Assembly: GCA_014859205.1 (NCBI GenBank)
Contig: JACUUR010000002.1
Location: forward strand, 1 to 56,438
DNA: 56,438 bases
Reading direction: 5' to 3'
From: Dehalococcoidia bacterium
GTDB lineage: Bacteria; Chloroflexota; Dehalococcoidia; GIF9; AB-539-J10
The stretch's first letter is position 1, and each line of letters begins with the position of its first letter. The position numbers and the translations under genes are program-made. Shown here piece by piece: positions 16,748 to 49,888 of this stretch. The notes under the pieces were generated by a model, which had not been told where the DNA came from, did no database searches, and was given only the letters and a program-made list of their open reading frames with translations.

Positions 16748-16763
16748 GGCCCGGTATCGGGTT

Positions 16764-27184: not shown

Positions 27185-27418
27185 ATGCCGAGAGGAGCGA
27201 TAATAGTTGATAAGGAACGGTGCAAGGGTTGCGGGCTATGCCTGGTTTTCTGCCCCCAAGACGTGCTCGCCTTTTCGGGAGAGCACAACCGCAGCAGCTA
27301 CGATGTGGTTTGCATGAAACATCCCGAACAATGTACCGGCTGCGGATTCTGCGCCCAGACATGTCCCGACATAGCGATTGAGGTCTACCGGCAGAAGAAG
27401 CCTAAGGATGGGAGCTGA
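27185..27418 (+). CDS. 2-oxoacid:ferredoxin oxidoreductase delta subunit (2x[4Fe-4S] ferredoxin)
   Basis: 77 aa. CKGCGLCLVFCP and CTGCGFCAQTCP motifs. Confidence 0.8.
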   Translation: MPRGAIIVDKERCKGCGLCLVFCPQDVLAFSGEHNRSSYDVVCMKHPEQCTGCGFCAQTCPDIAIEVYRQKKPKDGS

Positions 27419-28475
27419 TACCATAGACAAAGTCCTGATGACGGGGAATGAGGCCATGGCCGAGGCGGGCATCCGCGCCGGCTGCCGGGCCTATTTCGGC
27501 TATCCCATCACGCCGCAGAATGAGCTTCTGGAGTATATGTCAGCCCACATGCCGCAGGCAGGTGGGGCCTTCATCCAGGCAGAGAGCGAGATCGCGGCCA
27601 TCAACATGTGCTACGGTGCCTCGGCTGCGGGCGTGCGCACAATGACTTCATCATCGAGCCCCGGGATCAGCCTGAAGATGGAGGGGATATCCTATATTGC
27701 CGGCGCCGACCTGCCCTGTGTCATCGTCAATGTAGTGCGCGGCGGCCCGGGCCTGGGCAATATTGCCCCGGCCCAGGGCGATTACTTCCAGGCAACCAAG
27801 GGAGGAGGACACGGCGACTACCGCATGATAGTACTAGGTCCCTCAACCATACCGGAGGCTACTGAGCACGTAATGCTGGCCTTTGAACTGGCGGACAAGT
27901 ACCGGGGCCCGGTGATGATTCTGGCCGATGGGATGCTTGGACAGATGATGGAGCCGGTTGTCCTACCGAAACCCGTCGACCCGGCCACATTGCCGGCCAA
28001 GCCATGGGCTCTCACAGGCGCTAAGGGAAGAGAGCCCAATATCGTTACCAGCTTCTACCTGGACCCCGAAGAGCTCAACATGATGGACGTCAAGCGCGAG
28101 AGTCGATATCGGCAGATAGAGGAGCAGGAGGTGCGCTACGAAGAGCACGAGACTGCTGATGCCACCGTTGTCATCGCAGCCTACGGCTCTGTGGCCCGGA
28201 TCGCCAGGACCGTGGTGAAGATGGCCAGAGGCGAAGGGATCAAACTCGGCCTGCTGCGGCCGATCAGTCTGTGGCCCTTCCCTTATGCGCCGCTGCGTGC
28301 CATCGCCGATCGTGTCGACGCCATCCTTACCGTGGAGATGAACGCAGGCCAGATGGTGGAGGACGTGCGCCTGGCGGTAGCCGAGCGAGCTCAGACCCCA
28401 TTCTACGGCGTGCTCGGCGGCCTGGTACCCACCCCCAAGGATATCCTCAGAGAGGTGAAGCGCTATGCCGGTTAG
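27408..28475 (+). CDS. 2-oxoacid:ferredoxin oxidoreductase alpha subunit
   Basis: LMTGNEAMAEAGIRAGCRAYFGYPITPQNE N-terminus. ATG at 27408 overlaps the delta-subunit stop. The track start at 27378 is probably an extension. Confidence 0.85.
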   Translation: MGADTIDKVLMTGNEAMAEAGIRAGCRAYFGYPITPQNELLEYMSAHMPQAGGAFIQAESEIAAINMCYGASAAGVRTMTSSSSPGISLKMEGISYIAGADLPCVIVNVVRGGPGLGNIAPAQGDYFQATKGGGHGDYRMIVLGPSTIPEATEHVMLAFELADKYRGPVMILADGMLGQMMEPVVLPKPVDPATLPAKPWALTGAKGREPNIVTSFYLDPEELNMMDVKRESRYRQIEEQEVRYEEHETADATVVIAAYGSVARIARTVVKMARGEGIKLGLLRPISLWPFPYAPLRAIADRVDAILTVEMNAGQMVEDVRLAVAERAQTPFYGVLGGLVPTPKDILREVKRYAG

Positions 28476-29232
28476 TACAGAGAACATGGTCAAGGTATTC
28501 GAACGACCGAACAGCCTCAATGAATCCCAGTTCAGCTATTGCCCGGGTTGCCATCATGGGGTAGTTACCCGCATCGTCGCCCAGACCATTGACGAACTCG
28601 AGATTCGGGAACGCACTGTGCTGGTGGCGCCTGTGGGTTGTTCAGTCAGCATGTACCAGTGGTTTCGCTGCGACGGAACCCAGGCCTCTCACGGCCGGGC
28701 ATGTGCGGTAGCAACCGGCCTGAAGCGAGTCAACCCGAACCTCATCGTTTTCACCTATCAGGGCGACGGCGACCTGGCCGCCATCGGGACGGCGGAATCC
28801 ATCCACGCCGCCAATCGGGGCGAGAACATAACAGTCATCTTCATCAACAACCAGATCTATGGTATGACCGGAGGGCAGATGGCCCCCACCACCCTACTAG
28901 GACAGTGGGCCACCAGTTGTCCGGACGGCCGTGAAGGCAGCCTGGCCGGTTACCCGCTTCGGTTTGCCGAGATGGTGGCCCAACTGGAAGCGCCGGTCTA
29001 CGTTACCCGCCAATCGGTCTACGACCAGAAGCGTATCATGGCCACAACCCGGGCCATTATGAAGGCGTTCCGGTATCAGGTGGAGGGCAAGGGGTACGCC
29101 CTGGTGGAGGTCCTCACCAACTGCCCCACTAACTGGAAGATGGGTCCGGTTGAGGCCAATCGTCGGCTGGCAGATGAGGTGGTCAAGACATTCCCGCTAG
29201 GCGACCTCGTGGACAGGGGGCAAAGTGGATAA
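28465..29232 (+). CDS. 2-oxoacid:ferredoxin oxidoreductase beta subunit (TPP-binding)
   Basis: 255 aa. YCPGCHHG, GDGDLAAIG and INNQIYGMTGGQ motifs. Overlaps the alpha-subunit stop. Confidence 0.85.
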   Translation: MPVSTENMVKVFERPNSLNESQFSYCPGCHHGVVTRIVAQTIDELEIRERTVLVAPVGCSVSMYQWFRCDGTQASHGRACAVATGLKRVNPNLIVFTYQGDGDLAAIGTAESIHAANRGENITVIFINNQIYGMTGGQMAPTTLLGQWATSCPDGREGSLAGYPLRFAEMVAQLEAPVYVTRQSVYDQKRIMATTRAIMKAFRYQVEGKGYALVEVLTNCPTNWKMGPVEANRRLADEVVKTFPLGDLVDRGQSG

Positions 29233-29761
29233 TACATTCATATTTGCTGGCTTCGGAGGCCAGGGGGTTATACTGGCAGGCAAGCTCCTGGCCCAGGCGG
29301 GAACAGAATACGGCCTACACGTGACCTGGCTTCCATCCTACGGCCCGGAGATGAGGGGTGGGACGGCAAACTGCACAATAGTCCTCTCTGACGAACCCAT
29401 CGGCTCACCTGTGGTGGATACGCCCACCGGCCTCATCGCCATGAACCTCCCTTCTCTCGACAGATTCGAAAAGGCTGTGGCCGGATCGGGCACCATAGTA
29501 GTCAACTCCTCCCTGGTAGCGCGCCAGGTAGAGCGCGAAGACGTGCGAGCCCTAGCACTGCCGCTTAACGACATCGCTGCCTCGCTGGGCAACCCCAGAG
29601 CCGCCAACATGGTCGCGTTGGGCGCCCTGGTTAAGGCCACCGGAGCAGTGCCCCTAGAGACAGTGCAGAGGGCAGTAACCACCATGCTGGGACACAAGGC
29701 CAGCAGCGAGCTCATCGAAGTGAACAAGCGAGCACTGGCAGCCGGCTACGAGGCCGTGTAG
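29225..29761 (+). CDS. 2-oxoacid:ferredoxin oxidoreductase gamma subunit
   Basis: 178 aa. FAGFGGQGVILAGKLLAQAG and YGPEMRGG motifs. GTG start overlaps the beta-subunit stop. Confidence 0.85.
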   Translation: MDNTFIFAGFGGQGVILAGKLLAQAGTEYGLHVTWLPSYGPEMRGGTANCTIVLSDEPIGSPVVDTPTGLIAMNLPSLDRFEKAVAGSGTIVVNSSLVARQVEREDVRALALPLNDIAASLGNPRAANMVALGALVKATGAVPLETVQRAVTTMLGHKASSELIEVNKRALAAGYEAV

Positions 29762-32905: not shown

Positions 32906-33508
32906 ATGACATCTATCATTCTGGCAGGTGGGAGAAGCACCAGGCTGGGCCGGAGCAAGGCTCTCCAAGTTGTCGGGGACAGAACCCTGATACAGTGGGT
33001 TGTCGACCGCCTAGCCGTCCTGAGCACGGAGATCATCATAGCAACTGCCCATGGAGAGGCCATCCCCTGCTCGTCGCCCGTGACCATGAGAACTGTGGCG
33101 GATGTCTACCCCGACGGGGGGCCGCTGGGAGGGATCTACACCGGGCTGGCCTCTTCGTCTGGCGCCCGGGCCATCATAGTTGGCTGCGACACGCCCTTTC
33201 TGAACGTCGAGCTACTTGCTCATATGATGCGGATCTCACCGGAGTTCGACGTTGTGGTTCCGCGGGTAGGAGACAAGGTAGAGCCGCTATGCGCGGTGTA
33301 CTCCAGGCGCTGTATGGACACCATAAGGGGCCTGCTGGATGAGAACGAACTGAGAATCACCACGCTTTTTGGCCTGGTGAGCGTCAGATACATCGAGGTG
33401 TCTGAGATAGACACGTTCGATCCGGAGCACCTGAGCTTCCTCAATGCCAACAGCCAGACCGACCTGGAGAGGGCCAGAAGGCTGGCAGCCGAAAGAGGCC
33501 TGAGCTAG
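32906..33508 (+). CDS. mobA: Molybdenum cofactor guanylyltransferase
   Basis: 200 aa. IILAGGRSTRLGRSKA nucleotide-binding motif and VGCDTPFL. Its stop overlaps the convergent mvhD stop within CTAG (33505-33508). Confidence 0.8.
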   Translation: MTSIILAGGRSTRLGRSKALQVVGDRTLIQWVVDRLAVLSTEIIIATAHGEAIPCSSPVTMRTVADVYPDGGPLGGIYTGLASSSGARAIIVGCDTPFLNVELLAHMMRISPEFDVVVPRVGDKVEPLCAVYSRRCMDTIRGLLDENELRITTLFGLVSVRYIEVSEIDTFDPEHLSFLNANSQTDLERARRLAAERGLS

Positions 33509-33939
33509 GACTGACTGCCTACGGTGTCCCGCAAGGGACTGGGGCCGAGCTTCTTGATCTCCGAGACGAAATCGGTCACCACCTGGGCAAACCTCTGCCC
33601 CTCGGCGGCCGAGACCCACTCCAGCCTCAGCCGCTCGGACTCGATTCCCAGCTCAAGCAGCAGCTTCTTCAGCAGCAGCATCCTGCGCCGGGTCTTGTAG
33701 TTCCCCTCTAGATAGTGACAATCCCTGGGGTGGCATCCCCCTACAAACACGCCGTCAGCTCCCAAACGAAAGGCGTGCAGGATATACAGGGGGTCAACCG
33801 CTCCCGAACACATAAGCCTTATCATCCTCAAGTTGGGCGGATATTGAAGCCGGCTTATTCCGGCAAGGTCAGCCCCCGCATATGCGCACCAATTGCAGCA
33901 GAAGCCGATAATCTTGGGCTCAAAACTATCCGTCATCAT
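33505..33939 (-). CDS. mvhD: MvhD/FlpD-like [2Fe-2S] electron-transfer protein (copy 2)
   Basis: 144 aa. IIGFCCNWCAYAGADLAG...RLMCSGAV...VFVGGCHPRDCHY is the MvhD signature. ATG at 33937-33939 overlaps the hdrL TGA (ATGATGA). The track ORF start at 34143 is an extension. Confidence 0.85.
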   Translation of the reverse strand: MMTDSFEPKIIGFCCNWCAYAGADLAGISRLQYPPNLRMIRLMCSGAVDPLYILHAFRLGADGVFVGGCHPRDCHYLEGNYKTRRRMLLLKKLLLELGIESERLRLEWVSAAEGQRFAQVVTDFVSEIKKLGPSPLRDTVGSQS

Positions 33940-36900
33940 ACTCCTGCCAGAGCCGCACTGAGCGCAGCTGAGATCTCCTCCCTCGTGAATCCTCGCTGCT
34001 GGACAGCCCCGGACGGACAGGCAGCGCAGCAGGTGCCGCAGCCCTTGCATAGAGCCGCATTCACCACAGAGACCCCCTTCTCCCGATCCACAGCGATCGC
34101 TACGTAAGGACACATGGCCTCGCATATGCCGCAACCGGTACATATCTTCTCGTTCACAGAAGCAACAATGCCTTCTCCGGTTACGGCATCCTTGACCAGC
34201 ACTAGAGAGGCGCGGGCAGCAGCAGCCTTAGCCTGGGCAATGCTTTCCTCGATGGTCTTCGGTGCGTGGGCCAGTCCACAGACAAACACCCCGTCGGTGG
34301 CGAAGTCAACCGGGCGCAGCTTCACATGCGCCTCCAGGAAGAAGCCGTCCTGGTTCAGAGGCACCTTGTACAGCATGGCCAGTTCGTTGGCTTCAGGCGA
34401 AGGAACCATGGCTGCACTCAGCGCCAGGATATCGGCATCGATCACCACGTTCTGCCCCAGCACAGGGTCATAGGTCTCGACACCAAGCAGGAACCTGCTG
34501 TCCCTTCTTCTCTGACTGACCCGGGGCTTGTTCTCCAGATCATAGCGCACGAAGATGACACCCTTCTGCCTCGCCTCCTCATAGTACTTCTCGCTGAACC
34601 CGTAAGTTCGCACATCTCGATAGAGGATGTAGATGTTCATGTCGGGCTTCATCTCTTTGAGCCTCAGGGCATTGTTGATTGCCCTGTTGCAGCACACCCT
34701 GGAGCAGTAGGGTCGGTTCTCATCCCGGCAGCCAACGCACTGGATCATAACCAGGTTGTCGCAGTTCACGATATCAGGAGCCTTCTTCAGCAGCTCTTCC
34801 TCAAGCTCAAGCTGAGTAAGCACCCTCGGGTCTTTGCCATACAGATACTCCTCGGGTTTGTACTCCTCCGCTCCGGTGGCGATTATGGTCACGCCGTGTT
34901 CCAGCTTCTCCACCACCCTGCCGCGGTACCTCATGACCTCTGTCGTGAAGTTGCCCACATACCCGTGGACATCGACTATCCAGGTGTCGGTATACACCCT
35001 GATCCTGGGATGCTCCTGCACCTTGTGTATAAGCCCATCCAGAAACTCCTGAATATCCTCACCCTCAAGGCCGAAGTGTATTCTTCTGGTTATGCCGCCC
35101 AGCACGTTGCTTCTCTCGATCAGATCAACCTCGAATCCCTGTTCTGCCAATGTCAGTGCGCTGGTCATCCCGGCTACGCCTCCCCCGATAACCAACGCCC
35201 GGTGGTTGACCGGCAAGGCCACCGGTGTGAGCGGTTCGATCAACGCCGCCTTAGCCACCGCCATTCTCACCAGGTCCTCTGCCTTTACGGTCGCTTCTTC
35301 CTGCTCATGCATATGTACCCATGAACACTGGTCCCGGATGTTCGCCATCTCGAACAGATACGGGTTCAGCCCGGCCTGCCTGATTGTCTCCCTGAACATG
35401 GGCTCATGCGTCCTGGGAGTACAGGAAGCCACCACAACCCTGTTCAGCCTGTATTCCTCAATGGCTTTCTTGATCTTCTCCTGTGTGTCCTGAGAGCAGG
35501 TGAAGAGATTTCTTTCGGCATATTCCACGTTAGGCAGGGTCCTGGCATAGTCGGCGACCTCGGGCACATCCAGGTATCCGCCAATGTTAACTCCGCAGTG
35601 ACAGACGAAAACACCGATTCTGGGCTCCTCCCCGCTAACATCTCTCTCAGGGGGATACTCCTTTGTTCTGGTCAATGTCCCTCTCGCCGGAGCCAGCAAG
35701 GCAGAGATCTCCCCCGCCGCCGCACTTGCCTGCACTACAGTCTCAGGAATGTCCTTGGGAGCCGAGAAAGCTCCGCAGACGAATATCCCGGGCTGGGAAG
35801 TCGTCATGGGCAGGAACGGTTGTGTCTGGCAGAAACCGTACGGGTTGATCTGAACACCGCCCTTCCTGGCAAGCTCCACCAGTTCCGGCGAAGACTGAAA
35901 GCCTACAGAAAGGACCACCATGCTGAATCGCTCGGTCGTCACGGTGCCGTCCTCGGTGGCGAACTTGACCACCAGGTCCCCGCTGCTGTCGGCCGATTCG
36001 ATGCTGTAGACCTTCGATCTGACGAAGTTGATTCCGCTTTCTTCCTTGGCGCGCTCATAGTACTTGTCGAAATCCTTGCCATGAGTCCTGATATCCATGA
36101 AAAAGATGGTGATGTCTAGAGGCACGGTGCTATGCTCCTTGGCAATCACAGCCTCCTTGATGGCGTAGGTACAACAAACGGAAGAGCAGTAAGGCCGGTT
36201 ATGACTTGGATCCCTGGAACCGACGCACTGTATGAATGCTATCCTTTGCGGTGGCGTCAAGTCTGAGGGCCTGAGCAAGGTCCCCTGGTAAGGACCAGTG
36301 GCGCCCAGGATGCGCTCAAACTCGATGCTGTTCACCACATTAGGATATTTCCGATAGCCAAGCTCATATTGAACCGAAGGGTCAAAAAGATCATACCCGG
36401 GGGCGAACACGACAGCGCCCACGTTCAGGTCCAGGTATTCATCCTGCATCTCGTATTCGATGGCCTGCGCGGTGCAGCGCGCCGCACACTCCTGGCACTG
36501 AAAACAACCCTCGATCTGTGAGGCCAGGCATCTCTCAGCCTCTTCTCTGGCCTCGGAGACGGAATAACCCAGCTCAACCTCTTCAAAGCTCTTGATCCGT
36601 TCCTCCGGGTCCAGCTCTTTCATAGGAACCCTGTTTCTGGAAGGCACACGCTGCCTCAGCGCCGCAAGCTCTACCTCACTGAGCTTCTTCAGTTGCCTCT
36701 CCTCCTCCTTAGGCGACAGAGGTTCTCCCCTCAGATATTCATCTATGGAACGGGCCGCCTGCTTACCGGCCGCTATAGCCTCAATAGCGATGGATGGTCC
36801 GCTGACTGCATCACCACCGGCAAAAATCCCATCCACGCTACTGGCCAGAGCCCCATCCGTTACGATCGTTCCCCCGCGAGAAATCTGTATGCCGGACTCC

Positions 36901-38411
36901 CGAGCGAAATCAAGAATCGAGGCTTGCCCCAGGGCAGTGATAACGGTATCAACGTCGACCATGAACTCCGAACCTGGAACCGCGACAGGGCGGCGACGTC
37001 CGCTGGCATCAGGCTCGCCGAGTTCCATCCTGACGCACTCCATCCCTGAGGTCCTCCCGCCTTCAATGATGATTCCGGTGGGGTTGGTCAGAAACACCAT
37101 CTCGATCCCCTCTTCCTCAGCACCCCTTACCTCCGAAGGCGTGGCCGGCATCTCGTCCCTTGAGCGCCGATAGATAACCTTTACGTCGGACCCCAAACGC
37201 CTGGCCACCCTGGCAGCATCAACCGCGGTATTGCCTCCACCCACTACCGCCACCCTCTGTCCCAGTTCAACCTCCTCGCCCATGTTGGCACGCCACAGGA
37301 AGTCGATAGCGTTGATAACCTGCGGTGAATCGCCTCCAGGGATGTCAAGCTTCGTACCACCATGAGCGCCGGTGGCGATGAACACGGCCTCATGGGATGT
37401 TCTAAGCGCCTCCAGTTGTATGTCCTCTCCTATTCTGCTGTTTGTCCTTATCTCGACTCCCAGTCTTCTTATGTAGTCTATCTCTTTGTTGAGTATAGCT
37501 TTGGGCAGGCGATACTCGGGAATGCCCACCCTGAGCATGCCTCCCGGTTCCGGCATGGCCTCGAATATGGTTACTTCATAGCCTGCCAGGGCAAGGTCGT
37601 GGGCTGCGGCCAGGCCTGCCGGACCGCTGCCGATAATGGCGATCTTCCTCCCGTTTCTGGTGATCTCGGGCACCTCGACAGCATCGATATCGATCTGGTC
37701 GGTGACAAATCTCTTCAGTTCCCTGATTGCTATAGAGTCATCCATCTGCGCCCGATTGCAGGCCTTCTCACAGGGGGCATAGCAGACGCGGCCGCAAACA
37801 ATAGGGAGCGGATTGGTGCTTCTTATCAGGTCATACGCTTCCTTGATCTTGCCGTCGGCGATCAACCTGGCATAGCCCTGAATATTCATGTGAATAGGGC
37901 AGGCGTCGCTGCAGGCTGCCTTACAGGGCCTGTCAGCCCGCCTGTCGATCACATAAGTGTTGGGCACAGATTGTAGGAAGGGGGTGTAAATCGCCTTGCG
38001 CTGCACCAAGCCCTGGTCGTACTCGTTCTTCATCGTAACCGGGCAACCCTGAGCACATAGGCCACATCCCGTGCATTTCGCTCCATCAACGAACCTGGCC
38101 TTCTTCTTCACCGATACTATGAAGTTGCCCGGCCGCCCCTTGATATCCAGCAGCTCAGAGTAGGTCAGAAGCTCAATATTGAGGTGTCTGCCGCACTCCA
38201 CCAGTTTGGGCGATAGAATACACATGGAGCAATCGTTGGTGGGGAAGGTCTTGTCCAGTTGGGCCATGACTCCGCCGATGGAGGGAGTCCTCTCCACGAG
38301 GTAGACATAGTATCCAGACTCAGCAAGGTCCAGCGATGTCTGAATACCCCCTATGCCTCCCCCTACGACAAGAACCGCTCCTACTGTGCCGTTTCCGTCT
38401 TGCTTATCCAT
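33936..38411 (-). CDS. HdrL-like giant flavoprotein: HdrA FAD unit with inserted GltD/NfnB-like NAD(P)H module, fused to a second complete HdrA unit
   Basis: 1491 aa. aa 1-160 are the HdrA core (VVGGGIGGIQ, SIGGVMAQLDKTFPTNDCSMCIL, CTGCGLCAQGCP). aa ~160-565 are GltD-like (CGRVCYAPCEKAC, IAIIGSGPAGL, VAVVGGGNTAVD, FAGGDAV). aa ~630-905 are the rest of HdrA (IQCVGSRD, YCSSVCC). aa ~928-1491 are a second HdrA (IGVFVCHCGVNIGG, ANIRDQCSWVH, VIGGGVAGM, IQCVGCRD, YCSRVCC, CTGCGICEAMCP, CKGCGTCCAACP). Confidence 0.85.
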   Translation of the reverse strand: MDKQDGNGTVGAVLVVGGGIGGIQTSLDLAESGYYVYLVERTPSIGGVMAQLDKTFPTNDCSMCILSPKLVECGRHLNIELLTYSELLDIKGRPGNFIVSVKKKARFVDGAKCTGCGLCAQGCPVTMKNEYDQGLVQRKAIYTPFLQSVPNTYVIDRRADRPCKAACSDACPIHMNIQGYARLIADGKIKEAYDLIRSTNPLPIVCGRVCYAPCEKACNRAQMDDSIAIRELKRFVTDQIDIDAVEVPEITRNGRKIAIIGSGPAGLAAAHDLALAGYEVTIFEAMPEPGGMLRVGIPEYRLPKAILNKEIDYIRRLGVEIRTNSRIGEDIQLEALRTSHEAVFIATGAHGGTKLDIPGGDSPQVINAIDFLWRANMGEEVELGQRVAVVGGGNTAVDAARVARRLGSDVKVIYRRSRDEMPATPSEVRGAEEEGIEMVFLTNPTGIIIEGGRTSGMECVRMELGEPDASGRRRPVAVPGSEFMVDVDTVITALGQASILDFARESGIQISRGGTIVTDGALASSVDGIFAGGDAVSGPSIAIEAIAAGKQAARSIDEYLRGEPLSPKEEERQLKKLSEVELAALRQRVPSRNRVPMKELDPEERIKSFEEVELGYSVSEAREEAERCLASQIEGCFQCQECAARCTAQAIEYEMQDEYLDLNVGAVVFAPGYDLFDPSVQYELGYRKYPNVVNSIEFERILGATGPYQGTLLRPSDLTPPQRIAFIQCVGSRDPSHNRPYCSSVCCTYAIKEAVIAKEHSTVPLDITIFFMDIRTHGKDFDKYYERAKEESGINFVRSKVYSIESADSSGDLVVKFATEDGTVTTERFSMVVLSVGFQSSPELVELARKGGVQINPYGFCQTQPFLPMTTSQPGIFVCGAFSAPKDIPETVVQASAAAGEISALLAPARGTLTRTKEYPPERDVSGEEPRIGVFVCHCGVNIGGYLDVPEVADYARTLPNVEYAERNLFTCSQDTQEKIKKAIEEYRLNRVVVASCTPRTHEPMFRETIRQAGLNPYLFEMANIRDQCSWVHMHEQEEATVKAEDLVRMAVAKAALIEPLTPVALPVNHRALVIGGGVAGMTSALTLAEQGFEVDLIERSNVLGGITRRIHFGLEGEDIQEFLDGLIHKVQEHPRIRVYTDTWIVDVHGYVGNFTTEVMRYRGRVVEKLEHGVTIIATGAEEYKPEEYLYGKDPRVLTQLELEEELLKKAPDIVNCDNLVMIQCVGCRDENRPYCSRVCCNRAINNALRLKEMKPDMNIYILYRDVRTYGFSEKYYEEARQKGVIFVRYDLENKPRVSQRRRDSRFLLGVETYDPVLGQNVVIDADILALSAAMVPSPEANELAMLYKVPLNQDGFFLEAHVKLRPVDFATDGVFVCGLAHAPKTIEESIAQAKAAAARASLVLVKDAVTGEGIVASVNEKICTGCGICEAMCPYVAIAVDREKGVSVVNAALCKGCGTCCAACPSGAVQQRGFTREEISAALSAALAGV

Positions 38412-38426
38412 AACAATACCTTCACA

Positions 38427-38894
38427 TTACAGCTTCTGCAGCACCTTCTTAGCCAGTTCGGCGGGCTCGAAATCGCCTCCCTGGGCTCTCGAGTCGGCGA
38501 CGCCGCTAACCATCTGGTGACGCAGCTTCTGGCAGAATACGTCGATCTCCCTGACCTTCTCCGGAAAGGACGGGGCTACGTACCCTTCTCTGACTGCCAT
38601 GCCTCTCAAAGCCTTCATGATATCGGCAAAATCAACGTTCTGAGGGCAGTGGGCCTGGCAGCTGTAACACTGAATGCAGAACCAGATCGTATCTGACGAC
38701 AAAACCTCTCTCCTCAACCCCAGAAGAACCATCCGGATTATGCGACGGGGGTTAAACTTCTGGTCTATGTCAGAAACCGGACAGCTGGCTGTACAGAGAC
38801 CACAGGCGAAGCAAAGCCTGATCCTCTCTCCTCCAGGCTCATCGGCAACGTCGTATTTGAATCTGGTGTCCAGTTCGTTCAAAGCTACAGTCAT
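38427..38894 (-). CDS. HdrC-like 2x[4Fe-4S] ferredoxin-domain protein
   Basis: 155 aa. CFACGLCTASCP and CIQCYSCQAHCP in the HdrC-type helical arrangement. AAGGAGG RBS. Confidence 0.7.
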   Translation of the reverse strand: MTVALNELDTRFKYDVADEPGGERIRLCFACGLCTASCPVSDIDQKFNPRRIIRMVLLGLRREVLSSDTIWFCIQCYSCQAHCPQNVDFADIMKALRGMAVREGYVAPSFPEKVREIDVFCQKLRHQMVSGVADSRAQGGDFEPAELAKKVLQKL

Positions 38895-38928: not shown

Positions 38929-39822
38929 CTACGCTAGTCCGGCGGCCTCCAGTATCTCCGGTACCCTGTCCTCCCGTCCGATAAACATGATGTGTACCCC
39001 ATCACAGACGTTCTGTTCCTTGATCTGCCTTATCAGGCGGGCAGCCATCTCTATGCCCTTGGCGACGCCGGTGCCCTTGGGGGCCTCGGCCAGTTCATCG
39101 ATCAGGGACTGAGGGATGAAGATGCCGGGAACATTCTCGTTCATATATGAGGCCATCTTCACGCCGATGACGGGTACTATGCCCCCCAGTATCTTTACGT
39201 CTTGATCGATCTTGCGGACGAACTCCGTGAACCTCTTGAGTTCATCGAGATCATAGACAGCCTGGGTCTGGATGAAATCAACTCCCGCTCTGAGCTTCTT
39301 CTCAACCTTGATGAGCTGGGGTTCAAGTGGATCCGACGAAGGCGAAGCAGATGTGCCGATACAGAAATCAACCGCCCCGTCCAGCTCATTGCCTGCCATG
39401 TCCTTGCCTGAACTCAGAGTATGTACAAGATGAATGAGCTGCACCGAATCGAGGTCGAACACCTGTTTTGCCTCTTTGTGGTCACCTACGTCAACCGAGT
39501 CGCCGGTGAGACAGAGCACGTTACTGATACCCCGGGAATAGGCAAACAGGAGATCCGCCTGAATGGCCAGACGATTCCTGTCGCGGCAGGTTATCTGCAG
39601 CACCGGCTCGCCACCGTGTTCTTTAATCAGAAGACAAACCCCCACCGATGGATAACGCATCACCGAGCTCTGATTGTCGGTCACATTCAGGGCGTCGACC
39701 TTATCCTTGAGAAGCTCAATATGCTCTATAGTCTTGGCCACATTGGAGCCTTTTCCAGGCGCGGCCTCAGCAGTTACCACGAATTTCTTTGTCTTGAGAG
39801 TTTCCCTAAAAGGCGTTGCCAT
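38929..39822 (-). CDS. metF: Methylenetetrahydrofolate reductase, MetF (MetV-associated type)
   Basis: 297 aa. FVVTAEAAPGKG, ALNVTDN, ITCRDRNR and LCLTGD motifs of the MTHFR TIM barrel. Confidence 0.85.
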   Translation of the reverse strand: MATPFRETLKTKKFVVTAEAAPGKGSNVAKTIEHIELLKDKVDALNVTDNQSSVMRYPSVGVCLLIKEHGGEPVLQITCRDRNRLAIQADLLFAYSRGISNVLCLTGDSVDVGDHKEAKQVFDLDSVQLIHLVHTLSSGKDMAGNELDGAVDFCIGTSASPSSDPLEPQLIKVEKKLRAGVDFIQTQAVYDLDELKRFTEFVRKIDQDVKILGGIVPVIGVKMASYMNENVPGIFIPQSLIDELAEAPKGTGVAKGIEMAARLIRQIKEQNVCDGVHIMFIGREDRVPEILEAAGLA

Positions 39823-39833: not shown

Positions 39834-40493
39834 TTAAGCTCTGGCCGCCTGGACCCTGCCGGGCCTTTTGACCGCCCGGTAATTCTTGGGCGAGTAATAC
39901 TCACGCATCAGGTCAAGTCTACCCTGCTTCTCCAGCCTGCGATATATAAGCACCCAGCCACAATCCTTATCAGGGTCTATCTCGCACTTACCACCCTTCC
40001 TGGTACCGCCGCAGGGACCGTTCAGCAGCCCCTTGGCACAACGAACCATAGGGCAGACCCCCCCGGTTCGATCCAGCAGGCAGTCACCACAGGCGCCGCA
40101 CATCTCCACCCAAAGCCCCTCTGTCTCCGGCATGCCGATGAAGGTGGTGTTGACTGCGGGCAGAACTGGCTTGTCCTCAAACCGTTCAGCCATAGTCTGT
40201 ACTCCCGCCCCGCAGGCCAGCGAGAGCACTGCGTCAACCTGAGCCACCTGCTCGCTGAGCTCTTCTATCATCTCTTTCTCACACTGCCGCTCAACCGTTG
40301 CTTCGGATGTTACGATTTCATTTCCCTCTGCGTCGCGGGCCAGTCTCAGTTCTGAGGCGAGTATCCCTACCTCCTTCTCCCCGCCGGCCCAACACACTGC
40401 CACGCAGGTTGCACAACCTGCCACAAGCACTCTCTTGTAAGGGGCTAACTCCTGTCTGATCTCTTCCAGTGACTTCCGTTCAGCGATTATCAT
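39834..40493 (-). CDS. metV: MetV, MTHFR C-terminal-domain (zinc-ribbon / Fe-S) small subunit
   Basis: Cys-rich CGACGDCLLDRTGGVCPMVRCAKGLLNGPCGGTRKGGKCE...CGW is the MTHFR_C signature. ATG at 40493 with GGGAGG upstream. Overlaps the mvhD end by 14 nt. Confidence 0.75.
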   Translation of the reverse strand: MIIAERKSLEEIRQELAPYKRVLVAGCATCVAVCWAGGEKEVGILASELRLARDAEGNEIVTSEATVERQCEKEMIEELSEQVAQVDAVLSLACGAGVQTMAERFEDKPVLPAVNTTFIGMPETEGLWVEMCGACGDCLLDRTGGVCPMVRCAKGLLNGPCGGTRKGGKCEIDPDKDCGWVLIYRRLEKQGRLDLMREYYSPKNYRAVKRPGRVQAARA

Positions 40494-40884
40494 CTTGCCT
40501 CCCTGGACTCTGTGATGTTGCCTTTGTTGTCTCTTCTGTAGCTGCGACAAATTTATGGGGCGCATTCGGACTGAGGTTGACCATCACTGCAGATCTGCCC
40601 TCCAACCCGATCTCTTTCAATAGCATCTGGCAGTGTTTCACCCTTTCACCTGCTCTTATGTTCCCGGTAATATGATGACAAGCTCCATCTTCGCATCCCA
40701 TTACCAGCACCGCCGAGGCGCCCTTCTCAAACGCCCGCAGGATATGGATGACGTCCACCCGGCCGGCGCAGGGAACACGAACTATCCGCACCGCCTCCGG
40801 GTAATGAAGTCCCAGTTTTCCCGCCAGGTCGGCGGCCGGATAGGCAGAATGCTGACAACAGAAAGCTACAATAGCTCCCTTCAT
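40480..40884 (-). CDS. mvhD: MvhD/FlpD-like [2Fe-2S] protein (copy 1)
   Basis: 134 aa. IVAFCCQHSAYPAADLAG...VPCAGRV...VLVMGCEDGACHH. ATG overlaps the upstream stop as ATGA. The track ORF start at 41223 is an antisense-frame extension. Confidence 0.8.
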   Translation of the reverse strand: MKGAIVAFCCQHSAYPAADLAGKLGLHYPEAVRIVRVPCAGRVDVIHILRAFEKGASAVLVMGCEDGACHHITGNIRAGERVKHCQMLLKEIGLEGRSAVMVNLSPNAPHKFVAATEETTKATSQSPGRQDDNR

Positions 40885-42527
40885 CCTTCTCCCAAGGCCT
40901 CGATCTGGGCCAGCATCTGATCGTCTCTGTAGTCCTGAAACTCGATTGCCTTGGCCGGACAGATAGCGACACAAATGCCACAGGCGTAGCACGCCAGATC
41001 CGATATAGCGGCCACTTCCTTGCCACCATCTGTCCCCATCAACTGGATTGCACCGTGTGGACAGACACGGATGCAGGTTAGGCAAGCTACGCACTTCTGC
41101 GGGTCTGCCTTGACTCTCTCGATCTCCACCGCAATCGTGCCGGCAGACAGCAGTTCCTGTATGCTGACAACAGCGCAGGAGATATCGGCCAACAGCCGGC
41201 CGACGTCGGACTGGCCGCGGCACTCGCCCACAAAGAACAACCCCCGCTTCTCGGAAGCTACGGGATAGAGGTGCACGTTTTCATCCTGGTAGAAGCCCCG
41301 GGCGTCCAGGCGAACACCGAGTAGAGAACCCAGAAGCCGTGTCCCTTCAGATGGAAACAGGAGTTCCTCCGCCACCAGAAGCTCGCAGTTGACAACGGCG
41401 TCTTCACCCAGGAGGACATCTCTGGCCTCCACCGCTATCCGTTCGTTATCCGTGCTAACCTTCGGAGGACCGGAACACTTCACGAACACGACCCCACAAT
41501 CCCTGGCCTCCCGATACAGACGCTCTGCTCCCTGGCTATCAACCTTGACATCCTTGCAGAACACGTATACTTCACTCCCCCACGCTCTACGGGCTGCCAG
41601 AGCATTACTGAGGCTGGCAAGCGTGGAAAAGCGAGAGCTATCGTCCACAAAATCGAACACGAAACCTATGGCATCTGGCTTCGTGCCCGACAACGGGGCG
41701 CCCAGCATATCCCGAAGCTGCTCCTGGGAGACAATATTCATTCCGGAAACCGCCTCGCCCTTAGTTCCCGTTATTGGCGCCAGAGCAGACCCGGTACGGA
41801 AGCCGGTGGCAAGCACTATCGCCCCGAACTTGCGGCAGCGATTCTCCCCGTTCCTGCTCATGGTTACAATGAAGTCTCCCATCGTCCCCCTTACTGCCAC
41901 TATCCGGGCAGAGTTGATCATCTCGATGTTCTCGTCTCGCTCCGCCGCAGCTACCATTGAACTCATGTCTAATCGACACAAGCTATCCAATTCCTGATCC
42001 CCGCCTCCTGCGGTCCCTGCGTCTACAAGCAGAGTTGTACACACTCCCGTCGAAGAAAGCCGTAGCGCCGTGCTGAATGCCGAAAACCCACCACCAACCA
42101 CCAAAACGCCCCTTTCCACAGGCAGATCCTTCTTCTCTACCGGATGGAGCAGTCTCCCTCCGTTTACAGCCATCCTGACGAGTTCCACAGCCTTTGCCGT
42201 AACGTCACCTTCATGAGCCCAGGAGCATTGTTCCCTTATGTTTGCCATAGAGAGGAGATGCTCATTCAGGCCGGCATCTTCCAGTGCCCGCCATAGAACA
42301 TGTTCCTCGAACTCAGGAGAACATGCCGCAACAACCACCCTATCTATGTTCTCCTCCTTGATACGGGAGACCATCTGCTCCCTTCCTGCCTTGCTGCAGA
42401 GATTGGAGCTCAAGTTGACGCAGGCGACGCCGGGCATCTCCGTCACCCTGGCCGCAACGGCATCAAAATCAATATTCTTCATGCCTCCGCCGCAGTTGCA
42501 GAGGAAGACGCCTATCCTTGTTTCCAT
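40881..42527 (-). CDS. HdrA-like protein, second-unit type (N-terminal Cys domain + FAD-like domain + C-terminal 2x[4Fe-4S] ferredoxin)
   Basis: 548 aa. IGVFLCNCGGG, VVAACSPEF, ANIREQCSWAH, VVGGGFSA, CVACLTCIRVCP and CYACGICVAICP. Collinear with aa ~928-1491 of the 1491-aa protein. Confidence 0.75.
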   Translation of the reverse strand: METRIGVFLCNCGGGMKNIDFDAVAARVTEMPGVACVNLSSNLCSKAGREQMVSRIKEENIDRVVVAACSPEFEEHVLWRALEDAGLNEHLLSMANIREQCSWAHEGDVTAKAVELVRMAVNGGRLLHPVEKKDLPVERGVLVVGGGFSAFSTALRLSSTGVCTTLLVDAGTAGGGDQELDSLCRLDMSSMVAAAERDENIEMINSARIVAVRGTMGDFIVTMSRNGENRCRKFGAIVLATGFRTGSALAPITGTKGEAVSGMNIVSQEQLRDMLGAPLSGTKPDAIGFVFDFVDDSSRFSTLASLSNALAARRAWGSEVYVFCKDVKVDSQGAERLYREARDCGVVFVKCSGPPKVSTDNERIAVEARDVLLGEDAVVNCELLVAEELLFPSEGTRLLGSLLGVRLDARGFYQDENVHLYPVASEKRGLFFVGECRGQSDVGRLLADISCAVVSIQELLSAGTIAVEIERVKADPQKCVACLTCIRVCPHGAIQLMGTDGGKEVAAISDLACYACGICVAICPAKAIEFQDYRDDQMLAQIEALGEG

Positions 42528-42542
42528 CAATCGTTCCCCTGA

Positions 42543-43811
42543 TCAGCTATCGCAAGGGCTCGCAGCACACTCCAGCATCTCCAGTGCACTGGAGGCAGCA
42601 GCCATCCCATGAGCCACGGCATCAGGTATGTCCCTGGGGCCCTGACAGGTCCCGGCAAGGAAGATCCCTTTCACGGTGGTCTCATTCGAGCCGAACGGAT
42701 CCGCCGTAGCGTAGAATCCGTCGTCGGCCATATTGATGCCCAGGGTCCGGGCCAAGTCCCAGGAGTTCCTACTGGGGGAAATGCCCACAGAAAGGACCAC
42801 CAGGTCAAAGATGTCCCGGCAGACCCTGGTCTGGGAGATATCCTCAAACTTGACCTCTAGCTCTCCGGACGCAGTCTGCAGGATTTCGACGGGCACGCCC
42901 CGCACAAACCGTATGCTCCCCTTGTATTCCTCGTAAAACTGAGCAAAGCCTTTCCCTGCAGTCTGCAGGTCGATGTAGAAAATGGTTACCTCGGTGTCGG
43001 GACTGCGATGCTTGATAAGCCCTCCAAGCTTCATAGCATACTTACAGCACACATGTGAGCAATAACCATGATGCTTGTCTCTGGAGCCGACACACTGAAC
43101 GAAGGCAACCCTCCGGGGCTCCTCCCCGTTACTCCGAAGTCTTAGTTGGCCCTCGCGGCTCAGAATGTGCTCCACATCCAGGCCTGTCAGCACGTTGGGG
43201 TATCTGCCGTAACCCAGGGAGCCTTTCTCCCTGGCGTCAAAGACATCAAAGCCGGTGGCGACAATAACGGCCCCGACGTTCAACTCCTGCCCCTTTGCCT
43301 TGCGCTCGAGATCAATGGCCTCAGTGGGGCAGGTCTCACGACAAAGACTGCATTGTTGCCCGTTGAAGCGCAGACAACGTCCTTCATCAAGAACGTAGCA
43401 GAAGGGTGTCGCCTCGGCGGGAGGCGCATAGATCGCCACGGGGTCAGCGGGGCAGACCTCAGCGCAGAGGCCACAGGCTATACATCTCTCTGCATCGACA
43501 TACCCCGGCTGCTGAGTTATCTCAACGCGAAAGCTACCGGCCTCGCCGCTGAGCCTCTTCACTGTGGAGTTGGTCAGGAGCCTGATTCGAGGGTGGAGTA
43601 GCGCCTCTTTGATCTTGTCGGGCACCACACAGGCAGAACACCTGACACAGATATCCGTTGCCTTACAGCAAAAGCGGGCACTGTGTCCGCCAACCACCGC
43701 CTCCTTCTCCACCAAATATACGCTGACGCCGGCTTTGGCCAACTCCAGAGCAGAAGAAATGCCTGATATGCCTGAACCGATAACTAGAGCGTTCCTGCTG
43801 TCGGAGTCCAC
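42543..43811 (-). CDS. HdrA-like FAD/Fe-S protein, first-unit type (no GltD insertion)
   Basis: 422 aa. VIGSGISGISSALELAKAG, CIACGLCAEVCP, CSLCRETCP, VQCVGSRD, YCSHVCC. GTG start. Ends in TGA, in frame with the next gene. Confidence 0.8.
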   Translation of the reverse strand: MDSDSRNALVIGSGISGISSALELAKAGVSVYLVEKEAVVGGHSARFCCKATDICVRCSACVVPDKIKEALLHPRIRLLTNSTVKRLSGEAGSFRVEITQQPGYVDAERCIACGLCAEVCPADPVAIYAPPAEATPFCYVLDEGRCLRFNGQQCSLCRETCPTEAIDLERKAKGQELNVGAVIVATGFDVFDAREKGSLGYGRYPNVLTGLDVEHILSREGQLRLRSNGEEPRRVAFVQCVGSRDKHHGYCSHVCCKYAMKLGGLIKHRSPDTEVTIFYIDLQTAGKGFAQFYEEYKGSIRFVRGVPVEILQTASGELEVKFEDISQTRVCRDIFDLVVLSVGISPSRNSWDLARTLGINMADDGFYATADPFGSNETTVKGIFLAGTCQGPRDIPDAVAHGMAAASSALEMLECAASPCDS

Positions 43812-43849: not shown

Positions 43850-44251
43850 CTACTTTCTAAGCAAGTCTTCTATTCTTCTGAGCAGTTCCGGAGGGTCGAC
43901 CGGCTTTTGAAGATAGTCCTCTGCCTCCATCATCATTCCCTCGCGCATAGAAAGGTGTATCTTATCTCTATCTTCCGGGTACACCGTGAGCATCAACACA
44001 GGGATGTCGGAGAAGAAATGATATTTCTCGTCGGTCTTGAGTTCCCGACAGACCTCAAACCCATGCTTCCCCGGCATTACCACGTCCAGGATGATCAAAT
44101 CAGGTCGCTCCTCCACCACGCTGCGCAGCCCTTCGCTTCCATCATAGGCCGACACCACCTGATAGGACCTGGGCTCAAGGATTTGCCTCACCACTATGTG
44201 CACATCCGGGTCATCATCAATCAGCAGAATCTTAGTTTGTTCAGGCATCAT
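43850..44251 (-). CDS. Stand-alone CheY-like receiver protein
   Basis: 133 aa. ILLIDDDPD...LIILDVVMPGKHGFEV with no output domain. Start overlaps the upstream stop as ATGA. Confidence 0.85.
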   Translation of the reverse strand: MMPEQTKILLIDDDPDVHIVVRQILEPRSYQVVSAYDGSEGLRSVVEERPDLIILDVVMPGKHGFEVCRELKTDEKYHFFSDIPVLMLTVYPEDRDKIHLSMREGMMMEAEDYLQKPVDPPELLRRIEDLLRK

Positions 44252-44643
44252 TGTCCTCCTTTGGAGAGAAGCTTCTCAACGCGCTCGAGAAGAATGAAGG
44301 GTTCAATGGGTTTTTCGATGTAGTCATCAACGCTCAGTTCATGGCCCAGCTCCAGCTCATAGCGCCGGTGACTGGCCTCCTCCCTGATTGAGCTTATCAC
44401 CAGGATAGGGACATCCGGATATTCCCTGTTCTGGCTATCCCGCAGTGCTTTCACCACAGCAAAGCCATCCATGCCCGGCATCAGGAGGTCCAGCAGCATT
44501 AACTGTGGCCTTTCCTCCTGCAAACGTCTCAACGCCTCATATCCGTCGCAAGCCTCAATCACGTCATACTGACGAGACCTCAGCACACTGGCAATCGCCA
44601 GCCTCATATCGGGGTCATCATCCACTATTAGGATCTTTGCCAT
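44248..44643 (-). CDS. Stand-alone CheY-like receiver protein
   Basis: 131 aa. KILIVDDDPD...LMLLDLLMPGMDGFAV with no output domain. Confidence 0.85.
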   Translation of the reverse strand: MAKILIVDDDPDMRLAIASVLRSRQYDVIEACDGYEALRRLQEERPQLMLLDLLMPGMDGFAVVKALRDSQNREYPDVPILVISSIREEASHRRYELELGHELSVDDYIEKPIEPFILLERVEKLLSKGGQ

Positions 44644-45796
44644 CTGTTTCTACCCGGCCAGCCTCGGTCTCTTTGGGCAGAATGAACGTGAACCTGCTTC
44701 CCTTGCCTGTCTCAGGGCAGGGACTGGTCGCCCATATTCTACCACCATGAGCTTCGATTATCTGCTTGCTAATCGAGAGCCCCAGACCGGCCCCCCTCTT
44801 CTCTACATCCAGGCCCTTGTAGAAGCCGTCAAATACCCGGGGCAGGTCATCGGTCGGGATTCCCGTTCCCGTGTCGACCACATCAACCTGCACGTAGCCA
44901 GCGCGATCCCTGGTCTTAACCGTGACCCCGCCACAGGGAGTAAACTTAATGGCATTGCTCAACAGGTTCGTCAATACCTGCTTAAGCCGGCCAGCACTCC
45001 CCAGGATTAAGGGAAGCTCCTGAGGGCCCTCATAGGACAGTTCCAGTCCCTTCTCCTGGGCCAGGGGGCGCATTATCTCAACGCAGTCCTCTACCATCTT
45101 GGTAAGGCAAACTTCCTCGGTCCTGAACCCGCCGAAATCAACCCGTGAGAAATCGATCATGTTGCTTATCAGATTGAGCAGGTCGGAAAGCCTCTTGCTG
45201 CTCCTCTGCACTATGTTCTTCTGCTCTTCGGTTAGTTCCCCCACAAAACCATCCAGCAAGAGCCGGTTGTAGCTTTCGGCTGCAGCCAGAGGAGCCTTAA
45301 GGTCATGGAAGATTACCGACAGGATACGCTCCATTGTCTGTTTGGTATGCTGCTGCCTCCTGGCGACCACTTTGGCAAGGTTATTGGCTACCTTGTAACC
45401 CATCCCAGGATTCTCATCCAGCAGCGCCTTAAGCTCGTCGCCGTCCAGAGCGATGATCTCGGTCTTCTCCAGACAGCGACCGGAGGACGTAAGAACATGC
45501 GGCTCCATGAGCGCCGACCAGCAGAAGCTGCTGCCCTCGGAAAGCACGTCGATCGTCGCCCGTTCCACAGAGCTACGGCTGAGAGCCAGGTCGGTTTCCA
45601 GGGCCACCCTGCCGGACTTGAGAGTCTGGACGTAGTTGCACTGCCCTCCCTCACAGAACATGACCGTGCCGGACTCGAAGGACTGTTCCTGGCAGATCGG
45701 CAGCAGTTTGTTCAGTTCATCGTCGGTCAAGTCGTGGAAGAGCTCAGACGACCGCAACGTATCCTTGACTGAGTTGGATTGGGCTGTAGCTTCCAT
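44618..45796 (-). CDS. Soluble sensor histidine kinase with an N-terminal cyclic-nucleotide-binding-like (Crp-type) domain
   Basis: cNMP-like beta-barrel region ELFHDLTDDELNKLLPICQEQSFESGTVMFCEGG...LKSGRV. H-box FHDLKAPL. N/G boxes LLSNAIKFT, DTGTGIP, GAGLGLSISKQI. No TM segments. The start is uncertain: the ATG at 45796 is chosen to avoid overlapping the divergent metF. Confidence 0.7.
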   Translation of the reverse strand: MEATAQSNSVKDTLRSSELFHDLTDDELNKLLPICQEQSFESGTVMFCEGGQCNYVQTLKSGRVALETDLALSRSSVERATIDVLSEGSSFCWSALMEPHVLTSSGRCLEKTEIIALDGDELKALLDENPGMGYKVANNLAKVVARRQQHTKQTMERILSVIFHDLKAPLAAAESYNRLLLDGFVGELTEEQKNIVQRSSKRLSDLLNLISNMIDFSRVDFGGFRTEEVCLTKMVEDCVEIMRPLAQEKGLELSYEGPQELPLILGSAGRLKQVLTNLLSNAIKFTPCGGVTVKTRDRAGYVQVDVVDTGTGIPTDDLPRVFDGFYKGLDVEKRGAGLGLSISKQIIEAHGGRIWATSPCPETGKGSRFTFILPKETEAGRVETDGKDPNSG

Positions 45797-49872: not shown

Positions 49873-49888
49873 TGCTGCCTCCTTGTCG

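Follow-up and report, generated by a model that had tools for sequence, protein, structure and literature searches.

A Cysteine-Type HdrL With a Nested NfnB-Like Module Encoded Beside metVF in a Dehalococcoidia Contig

Described HdrA fusions and the identity of the window protein

HdrL was named in Desulfobacterium autotrophicum HRM2, where it is presented as a fusion of heterodisulfide reductase and glutamate synthase that has a site for a pyridine nucleotide and whose gene precedes mvhD (Strittmatter et al., 2009, PMC2702500). Here we describe a protein of this type encoded by a single gene, hereafter hdrL, within 56,438 nucleotides (nt) of a Dehalococcoidia contig (positions 1 to 56,438 of JACUUR010000002.1, assembly GCA_014859205.1; this whole stretch is called the window), and consider its relation to the adjoining genes for MetV and MetF, a methylene-tetrahydrofolate (methylene-THF) reductase. 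The electron partners of MetVF-type reductases, and energy conservation at that step, constitute an open problem in Wood-Ljungdahl bioenergetics (PMC5861303, PMC8760232).

Three further groups of described systems bear on this protein. Anaerobic methanotrophic archaea (ANME) encode HdrA-NfnB fusions (HdrA9-11) as well as fused or tandem HdrAs (HdrA3/4, 5/6, and 12/13), and Cys197 of the partner HdrA is described as ligating the cluster of the N-terminal domain in trans, with tandem and fused HdrAs losing Cys197 and the N-terminal domain in a complementary manner; the HdrA of the Moorella MetFV-HdrABC-MvhD complex is said there to belong to the fused kind (Chadwick et al., 2022, PMC9012536). 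That Moorella thermoacetica enzyme, the type IV methylene-THF reductase MetVF-HdrCBA-MvhD, contains an HdrA that oxidizes NADH and carries two flavin adenine dinucleotides (FAD), and electron bifurcation with an unknown second acceptor has been proposed for it (Mock et al., 2014, as summarized in PMC5861303 and PMC8760232). In NfnABC, NADPH binds beside the FAD of NfnA, electrons exit singly via cluster A7 (Cys108, Cys147, Cys151, and Lys170), and this FAD at the end of the chain is, according to the authors, not the bifurcating site (PMC11829005).

The window gene occupies 33936..38411 on the minus strand, TGA stop included, and its ATG start is preceded by a GAAGG ribosome-binding site about 9 nt upstream. 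The open reading frame (ORF) finder returned a product of 1491 amino acids (aa); the minus-strand translation is free of internal stops, whereas the plus-strand reading of the same interval is full of them, and homologues with 55-89% identity cover the complete product. An initial annotation of this DNA, made without database searches and without naming a strand, had given exactly these coordinates and this length for a real, uninterrupted gene, and each motif that it named lies where it was reported.

The likeness to HdrL suggested in that annotation also holds, as the protein has the elements by which the D. autotrophicum HdrL was defined. HdrA-homologous regions are represented by four stretches whose best PDB sequence match is HdrA (5odc_A, E = 5.5e-204) and which give Foldseek template modeling (TM) scores of 0.77-0.95; a GltD-like fusion with a pyridine-nucleotide site is recognized by Pfam, by NCBIfam NF009410 (score 559.2, above the cut-off of 516), and by PDB matches to NfnA, NfnB, and GltD; and a FlpD-family gene, mvhD, follows at 33505..33939 (minus strand; 144 aa; Pfam FlpD, E = 2.6e-56), its ATG overlapping the hdrL TGA as ATGA. 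The window protein is therefore an added HdrL-type member of a named and widespread family. Compared by description, the HRM2 protein and Sfum_0824 of Syntrophobacter fumaroxidans (PMC5947623) are likewise large HdrA/GltD fusions that bear a pyridine-nucleotide site and should be soluble by prediction, and mvhD directly follows their genes. The window HdrL differs from both in having cysteine instead of selenocysteine at position 64, in being encoded with MetV, MetF, and an HdrC-like protein rather than with DsrABC or HdrABC, and in its host, which is probably a Dehalococcoidia-type member of the Chloroflexota and not a sulfate reducer.

Domain map, nested module, and complementary units

HdrL is built of two HdrA-like FAD units, the first of which is interrupted by a module related to NfnL, NfnB, and GltD. 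The three flavin modules, which the initial annotation had distinguished, are recovered alike by hidden Markov models, PDB sequence matches, and two AlphaFold models, and we hold this architecture, together with membership in HdrL, with very high confidence. In phmmer searches against PDB sequences, HdrL residues 14-157 aligned to residues 147-290 of Methanothermococcus thermolithotrophicus HdrA, residues 162-640 to NfnA (9bov), StnC (8oh5), NfnB (4ylf_B), NfnI-L (5jca_L), and GltD, residues 634-837 to HdrA 291-494, residues 928-1095 to HdrA 2-169, and residues 1311-1476 to HdrA 471-638. The NfnA, StnC, NfnB, and GltD chains matched with E = 1e-136 to 5e-72. The PDB sequence matches include single-module relatives only, with no HdrL or fused HdrA chain among them. 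The HdrA sequence was also rebuilt from the phmmer alignments and aligned to units 1 and 2 with MAFFT.

Unit 1 begins, as had been claimed, directly at its FAD fold (GGGIGG, aa 17-22), with no CHCG domain ahead of it. Its first part (aa 1-160; 37932..38411, minus strand, as are all coordinates in this section; aligned to HdrA 147-290) contains DKTFPTNDCSMC at aa 53-64 (DKTFPTNDC61SMC64) and the first cysteine motif of the inserted ferredoxin domain, CTGCGLCAQGCP, at aa 113-124 (C113, C116, C119, and C123). Cys64 (codon 38220..38222), the second cysteine of DCSMC, is the equivalent of HdrA Cys197 in the MAFFT alignment. The second part (aa 634-905; 35697..36512; aligned to HdrA 291-494) opens with the second cysteine motif of that domain, CFQCQECAARC, at aa 636-646 (C636, C639, C642, and C646), then completes the thioredoxin-reductase fold and carries the cluster motif C729...C742xxxC746C747 (CVGSRD...YCSSVCC, aa 729-747). 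The initial annotation had unit 1 resume at this CVGSRD/YCSSVCC core, which is indeed present but comes only after CFQCQECAARC.

Because unit 1 is broken between HdrA residues 290 and 291, in the stretch separating the two CxxCxxCxxxC motifs, the NfnB/GltD-like module is nested in the inserted ferredoxin domain and, contrary to the initial proposal, does not replace it; both motifs are retained, their eight cysteines are invariant in 47 homologues, and the superposition on Methanothermobacter marburgensis HdrA (8rwn_A) bridges the insert. The module is also longer than the approximately 400 aa first estimated, spanning some 473 aa (aa 161-633; 36513..37931). Its likeness to GltD and NfnB is upheld by Pfam Fer4_20, Pyr_redox_2, and Pyr_redox at aa 163-549 along with NF009410 and the PDB matches, and the two cysteine clusters and two dinucleotide folds previously ascribed to it were located: cysteines at 163/167/171 and 206/210/214/218, and GxGxxG/A folds at aa 261-266 (FAD) and 391-396 (NADPH), the latter fold carrying YRRSRDEMPA at aa 414-423.

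Structure prediction, superposed on HdrA and NfnB relatives as the initial annotation had advised, matched both module types. An AlphaFold2 model of aa 1-1200, built from the 47-sequence alignment, reached a mean predicted local distance difference test (pLDDT) of 85.7 and a predicted TM score (pTM) of 0.78. Within it, unit 1 superposed on 8rwn_A with TM 0.94 and a root-mean-square deviation (rmsd) of 2.1 Å over 901 columns across the insert, and the nested module matched NfnA of the Caldicellulosiruptor saccharolyticus NfnABC (9bov_A) with 49% identity and rmsd 2.5 Å over 488 columns in Foldseek, followed by StnC, T. sibiricus NfnA, NfnI-L, NfnB, and GltD. Target-normalized TM scores of 0.79-0.82 to 4ylf_B, 5jca_L, and 6s6s_E place the module in the NfnB/GltD small-subunit fold. 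A further model, of the 1018 aa left on removal of the insert, had a pTM of 0.87, which indicates that the two units pack confidently, and matched 8rwn_A with TM 0.95 and rmsd 1.6 Å and 5odc_A with TM 0.77 and 39% identity. The DKTFPTND loop before Cys61 and Cys64 (aa 48-61, about 38229-38270) has pLDDT below 50 in both models though it is invariant, which in a predicted structure would be consistent with ordering only upon binding of a cluster or flavin.

The nested module resembles NfnA of the Bfu-type NfnABC/StnABC enzymes (9bov, 9n5u, and 8oh5; PMC11829005) in detail. The 9bov_A match (E = 2e-136) aligns the ligands C108, C147, C151, and K170 with C171, C210, C214, and K233, so that both proteins share three cysteines and a lysine as cluster ligands, and both carry YRRxRxEMPA in the NADPH fold, a motif invariant in the homologues. 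Since the match extends to the C-terminal EAxRCL segment, we treat aa 161-633 as one unit. By this likeness, C171/C210/C214/K233 would bind one [4Fe-4S] cluster, and C163, C167, and C218, probably with C628, a second. The module may thus be an NADPH input (or output) device, and we consider the input role likely. In NfnA, a formate-dehydrogenase-like domain is joined to the module, which supplies a NuoF-type flavin mononucleotide (FMN) site, whereas that of HdrL lies inside an HdrA ferredoxin domain. In NfnA, the closest solved relative, the FAD serves simply for NADPH input and is no site of bifurcation.

Unit 2 consists of an N-terminal (MvhD-like) domain (aa 928-1065; 35217..35630; aligned to HdrA 2-169) that has CHCGVNIGG at aa 937-945 and cysteines at 937, 939, 972, 997, and 1029; a thioredoxin-reductase-fold FAD domain (aa 1066-1407; 34191..35216; MAFFT alignment with HdrA and the above match to 5odc_A) with GGGVAG at aa 1076-1081 and C1225...C1236xxxC1240C1241; and a C-terminal 2x[4Fe-4S] ferredoxin domain (aa 1408-1491; 33939..34190; aligned to HdrA 471-638) with eight cysteines at aa 1424-1465 and Pfam Fer4_9, Fer4_10, and Fer4_7 at aa 1417-1469. 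The N-terminal domain, FAD fold, and C-terminal clusters of the second HdrA described in the initial annotation are thus confirmed, as is its loss of DCSMC, in whose place stands HFGLEGEDIQE; it is not, however, a full HdrA, having lost the inserted ferredoxin domain as well.

Aligned with HdrA, the two units are complementary. The FAD fold and the CxGxRD...CSxxCC cluster motif are present in both, but unit 1 has Cys64 and no N- or C-terminal domain, whereas unit 2 has both terminal domains and no Cys197 equivalent, the arrangement by which fused heterodimeric HdrAs are recognized (Chadwick et al., 2022). HdrL therefore fits a covalent HdrA heterodimer, an asymmetric one in which an NADPH module is nested in the ferredoxin domain of unit 1. 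Each chain would carry three FAD and some nine [4Fe-4S] clusters. One polypeptide does combine a pyridine-nucleotide site with two HdrA-type FAD folds, as the initial annotation had it, and it is possible that both HdrA flavins bifurcate.

These features set HdrL apart from HdrA of methanogens (5odc, 8rvu, and 7bkb), a homodimer with repeated accessory domains, whose FAD domain, CxGxRD...CSxxCC motif, and N-terminal, inserted, and C-terminal ferredoxin domains each occur once or twice in HdrL but are divided there between two fused units. No single unit combines the N-terminal domain, Cys197, and both ferredoxin domains, and the scores on canonical HdrA models fall below their cut-offs (NF040770, 989.8 vs 1100; NF041778, 715.9 vs 1400; NF041891, 688.1 vs 1300). 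The ANME HdrA9-11 share with HdrL an NfnB-like insertion of about 500 aa that breaks into the inserted ferredoxin domain, and the fused and tandem ANME HdrAs share the complementarity of Cys197 and N-terminal domain between halves. In the ANME fusions, however, the N-terminal domain lies in the first half and Cys197 in the second, the reverse of the order in HdrL, and unlike those proteins HdrL has insertion and complementarity in one chain, encoded in a bacterial metVF operon. We considered the pseudo-heterodimer reading as a new insight and set it aside, since it is already in print together with the NfnB insertion (Chadwick et al., 2022): HdrL itself was published in 2009, and both the NfnB insertion into the ferredoxin domain and the complementary HdrAs in fused form, that of Moorella included, in 2022. 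The value of the present case is that of a well-annotated HdrL with a corrected domain map, which leaves the published proposals unchanged.

Conservation of HdrL across phyla

More than 100 protein clusters of 1475-1497 aa match HdrL with 55-89% identity over 98-100% of the query, the named relatives among them belonging to Dehalococcoidia, Chloroflexi, and Thermodesulfobacteriota. A scan with one genome per species returned at least 599 confirmed matching stretches from many phyla, and the locus counts given here and below are based on the best 80 of these, from which 70 HdrL copies were recovered. The 80 stretches derive from Bacillota (among them the cultured Desulfotruncus arcticus), many Desulfobacterota, Acidobacteriota, Chloroflexota, Planctomycetota, Spirochaetota, one Asgard archaeon, and others. 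Species genomes that carry HdrL number in the hundreds and belong to Bacillota, Desulfobacterota, Acidobacteriota, Chloroflexota, Asgard archaea, and other groups. The 70 copies have a common four-part order and a single insertion point across phyla, and orthologues from Desulfobacteraceae and Desulfococcaceae, at about 50% identity, share the architecture of the window protein. Sets of 21 and 47 full-length homologues show no variation in any cluster cysteine, in K233, in the YRR motif, or in the four dinucleotide folds. Four relatives (P0102, P0111, P0116, and P0120) measure 1657-1691 aa with 75% query coverage in one local alignment, presumably owing to an extra domain or a rearrangement.

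This conservation bears on whether the long ORF could be an assembly chimera, or a fusion of separate hdrA, gltD, and hdrA genes through a frameshift or lost stop, either of which would have undone the initial annotation. Split versions do occur naturally, for example the HdrA pair A1/A2 of the window (see below), and at one Dehalococcoidales locus (L061, about 8034-12374) a TAG in the inter-unit linker is followed by a new methionine, a natural split into unit 1 with its NfnL module and unit 2. Nevertheless, 55 of the 70 copies are one stop-free frame and 14 more are interrupted only by a single TGA, the known selenocysteine codon; the full-length clusters cover essentially the whole query; an orthologue with 89% identity is a single 1491-aa gene call with identical gene order in three independent metagenome assemblies; and the insertion point is identical in all phyla. 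As far as comparative data allow, the chimera reading is refuted, and we give it virtually no weight.

In the 14 copies with an in-frame TGA, this codon stands at the Cys64 equivalent, where the window gene has cysteine, and we therefore regard these orthologues as selenoprotein forms of HdrL. They are mostly of Desulfobacterales type (L009, L019, L025, L027-L030, L032, L033, L035, L053, L062, L065, and L074). The window thus offers a clean, selenium-free cysteine form in a compact operon, a convenient template for heterologous expression and structural work.

Fused double HdrA genes lacking the insert (about 1008-1083 aa, with a contiguous inserted ferredoxin domain and each followed by mvhD) were observed in L005, L007, L028, L044, L058, L061, L064, L070, L075, L077, and L078, often adjoining an HdrL gene. 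Archaeal loci (Bathyarchaeia, Thermoplasmatota, and Nitrososphaeria) mostly carry this insert-less form.

Gene neighborhood and a possible role in methylene-THF reduction

In the window, hdrL is the seventh of eight minus-strand genes in the order A1, A2, mvhD, metV, metF, hdrC-like, hdrL, and mvhD, separated by short gaps or joined by ATGA overlaps. MetV (219 aa; 39834..40493) was assigned by Pfam PF12225 (MTHFR C-terminal/MetV, E = 1.7e-34) and MetF, the catalytic subunit of methylene-THF reductase (MTHFR; 297 aa; 38929..39822), by Pfam MTHFR (E = 9e-39). The HdrC-like 2x[4Fe-4S] protein (155 aa; 38427..38894; Pfam Fer4_8 and Fer4_17), whose gene ends 15 nt 5' of hdrL, matches the NCBIfam HdrC models, all below cut-off. 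Among related loci, mvhD follows hdrL in 53 of the 61 with enough downstream DNA, and metV-metF follow in 23 of 53; at least one of metV and metF is close to hdrL in 35 of 70, an HdrC-like gene immediately precedes hdrL in 22, and two Bacillota loci (L026 and L067) share the gene order of the window.

The cluster resembles the Moorella type IV enzyme in combining MetF, MetV, MvhD, an HdrC-like protein, and a fused double HdrA, and differs from it in the dedicated NfnL-type NADPH module, in an additional split HdrA pair with its own MvhD, and in the absence of HdrB, no HdrB or CCG-domain protein being found among the scanned window ORFs. This absence, with the sub-threshold HdrC-like protein, also distinguishes the locus from a canonical HdrABC arrangement. 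Our favored reading, in which we have moderate confidence, is that HdrL binds NADPH at the core of a methylene-THF reductase complex of the Moorella type (type IV), one that has a built-in pyridine-nucleotide site and dispenses with HdrB.

In such a complex, NADPH would give a hydride to the FAD of the nested module, from which electrons would pass singly via the two clusters of that module to the two clusters of the split ferredoxin domain, from there to the cluster that Cys64 of unit 1 and the N-terminal domain of unit 2 would bind together, and then to an HdrA-type FAD. From this flavin, the path may branch, by way of the [2Fe-2S] of MvhD together with the C-terminal ferredoxin domain and the HdrC-like protein, toward MetV-MetF and probably also ferredoxin, so that the complex would couple NADPH, methylene-/methyl-THF, and a low-potential carrier by electron bifurcation or confurcation. 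We infer the choice between these two directions, the identity of the third substrate, and the association with MetVF, and bifurcation with ferredoxin in particular is a tentative proposal.

The link to MetVF is drawn because metV and metF are succeeded, across short gaps or through ATGA overlaps, by the hdrC-like gene, hdrL, and mvhD, and because MvhD follows HdrL so regularly, MetV or MetF is near in half of the copies, and the order recurs in two Bacillota loci. Even so, we judge physical and functional coupling of HdrL to MetVF to be evenly balanced. HdrL and MvhD could instead be a self-contained NADPH:ferredoxin (Nfn-like) oxidoreductase or redox-balancing module that exchanges electrons with the adjoining MetVF only through soluble carriers: the pairing of HdrL with MvhD (53/61) is tighter than that with MetVF (35/70), the nearest relatives of the nested module are the NADPH subunits of the NfnABC and Stn transhydrogenases, and purified MetVF enzymes accept reduced ferredoxin in vitro (PMC5861303, PMC8760232). 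Against such independence, the genes form one tightly spaced operon with an HdrC-like connector between metF and hdrL, the gene order recurs in distant phyla, and the fused HdrA of Moorella co-purifies with MetFV (PMC5861303, PMC8760232, and PMC9012536), which makes a stand-alone module seem rather unlikely, though still a serious contender. The proteins expected of the named transhydrogenases and synthases were likewise absent, with no NfnA-type (FNR-like, [2Fe-2S]) partner among the scanned window proteins, as an NfnAB transhydrogenase would need, and no GltB large subunit in the scanned window, as glutamate synthase would.

Several observations count against an HdrL core dedicated to MetVF. 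MetVF is missing within 8 kb at about half of the related loci, and other authors tie HdrL to DsrABC, HdrABC, or FdhAB (PMC2702500, PMC5947623, and a 2025 paper); the HdrL-MvhD pair may therefore serve as a general module whose partners are interchangeable. Papers up to 2025 cite only the 2009 proposal on HdrL, and those of 2018 and 2025 still handle it as hypothetical. For the methanogen enzyme, electrons are described as leaving for ferredoxin, at low potential, through the inserted ferredoxin domain (PMC9012536), so the nested module could be an acceptor, reducing NADP+, and not a donor; the direction of electron flow is not readable from sequence. The preference for NADPH over NADH is suggested only by likeness to NADPH-using relatives. 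Finally, without an HdrB or CCG-domain protein among the scanned ORFs, the cluster is not a complete type IV set.

An older proposal would make HdrL the NAD(P)H-oxidizing partner of a thiol/disulfide reductase system acting on DsrC or a heterodisulfide-like substrate, as in sulfate reducers. It goes back to the hdrL1-mvhD-dsrABC arrangement of D. autotrophicum (PMC2702500) and is supported by the detection of HdrABC/HdrL in S. fumaroxidans only with sulfate (PMC5947623), and in the window an HdrC-like gene does adjoin hdrL. The scanned window ORFs, however, include no dsr, apr, or qmo genes in addition to lacking HdrB, the neighbors (MetV, MetF, a second MTHFR, and formate dehydrogenase) belong to the methyl branch of the Wood-Ljungdahl pathway, and the closest named relatives are Dehalococcoidia. 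We consider this role improbable here.

The upstream half of the operon repeats, in unfused form, the division of labor seen within HdrL. A1 (422 aa; 42543..43811, minus strand, assigned like A2 by alignment and domain searches) lacks an N-terminal domain but has the FAD fold, a Cys197 equivalent, the inserted ferredoxin domain, and the CVGSRD motif, and its best match is unit 1 (40% identity). A2 (548 aa; 40881..42527, minus strand) has the N-terminal and C-terminal ferredoxin domains but neither Cys197 nor CxGxRD...CC, and it matches unit 2 (27% identity over 559 aa). The correspondence of A1 to unit 1 and A2 to unit 2 indicates that this division predates the fusion. The A2 stop overlaps the ATG of the mvhD that comes next (134 aa; 40480..40884, minus strand; Pfam FlpD, E = 4e-40) as ATGA. 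Selenocysteine read-through at the in-frame TGA between the ORFs at 42543-43811 and 40881-42530 was considered and rejected, as the TGA lies in the inter-unit linker with an ATG (METRIGVFLCNCGG) four codons on, and gene callers on related contigs give two genes.

A bolder extension of the reading of HdrL as the core of a MetVF complex is that the whole operon (split HdrA pair, MvhD, MetV, MetF, HdrC-like protein, HdrL, and MvhD) encodes one HdrB-less supercomplex that couples NADPH, not NADH, to methylene-/methyl-THF and ferredoxin via two HdrA heterodimer modules in series. We regard this as speculative and on the whole doubtful. If true, the supercomplex would be the long-sought energy-coupling partner and supply the second substrate of MetVF-type reductases in Wood-Ljungdahl organisms beyond the classical acetogens.

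Directly upstream of the hdr/met operon, the region 43850-46847 encodes two single-domain response regulators and a histidine kinase with a cyclic nucleotide (cNMP)-binding domain, and beyond these regulators lies the second, divergent MTHFR gene (45864-46847, plus strand); the arrangement is repeated in two orthologous contigs (L081 and L082). A formate dehydrogenase cluster follows (46909-53445, minus strand), comprising a NuoE-like protein (172 aa), a 1013-aa fusion with NuoE-like, NuoF, and GltD-NfnL-like parts, and a 999-aa FdhA with a NuoG-like N-terminus that passes TIGR01591. We assign it to a Bfu-like enzyme, which contributes a second NfnL-type module to the window.

The window also contains several genes unrelated to HdrL. 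These are a 928-aa beta-propeller/leucine-rich-repeat protein (10484-13270, plus strand), genes for D-glutamate cyclase and a PxpABC-like 5-oxoprolinase (14116-18372, minus strand), a 140-aa ORF with a sub-threshold match to a Frankia-type ribosomal peptide family (53461-53883, minus strand), and three subunits of a 2-oxoacid:ferredoxin oxidoreductase (27378-29761, plus strand).

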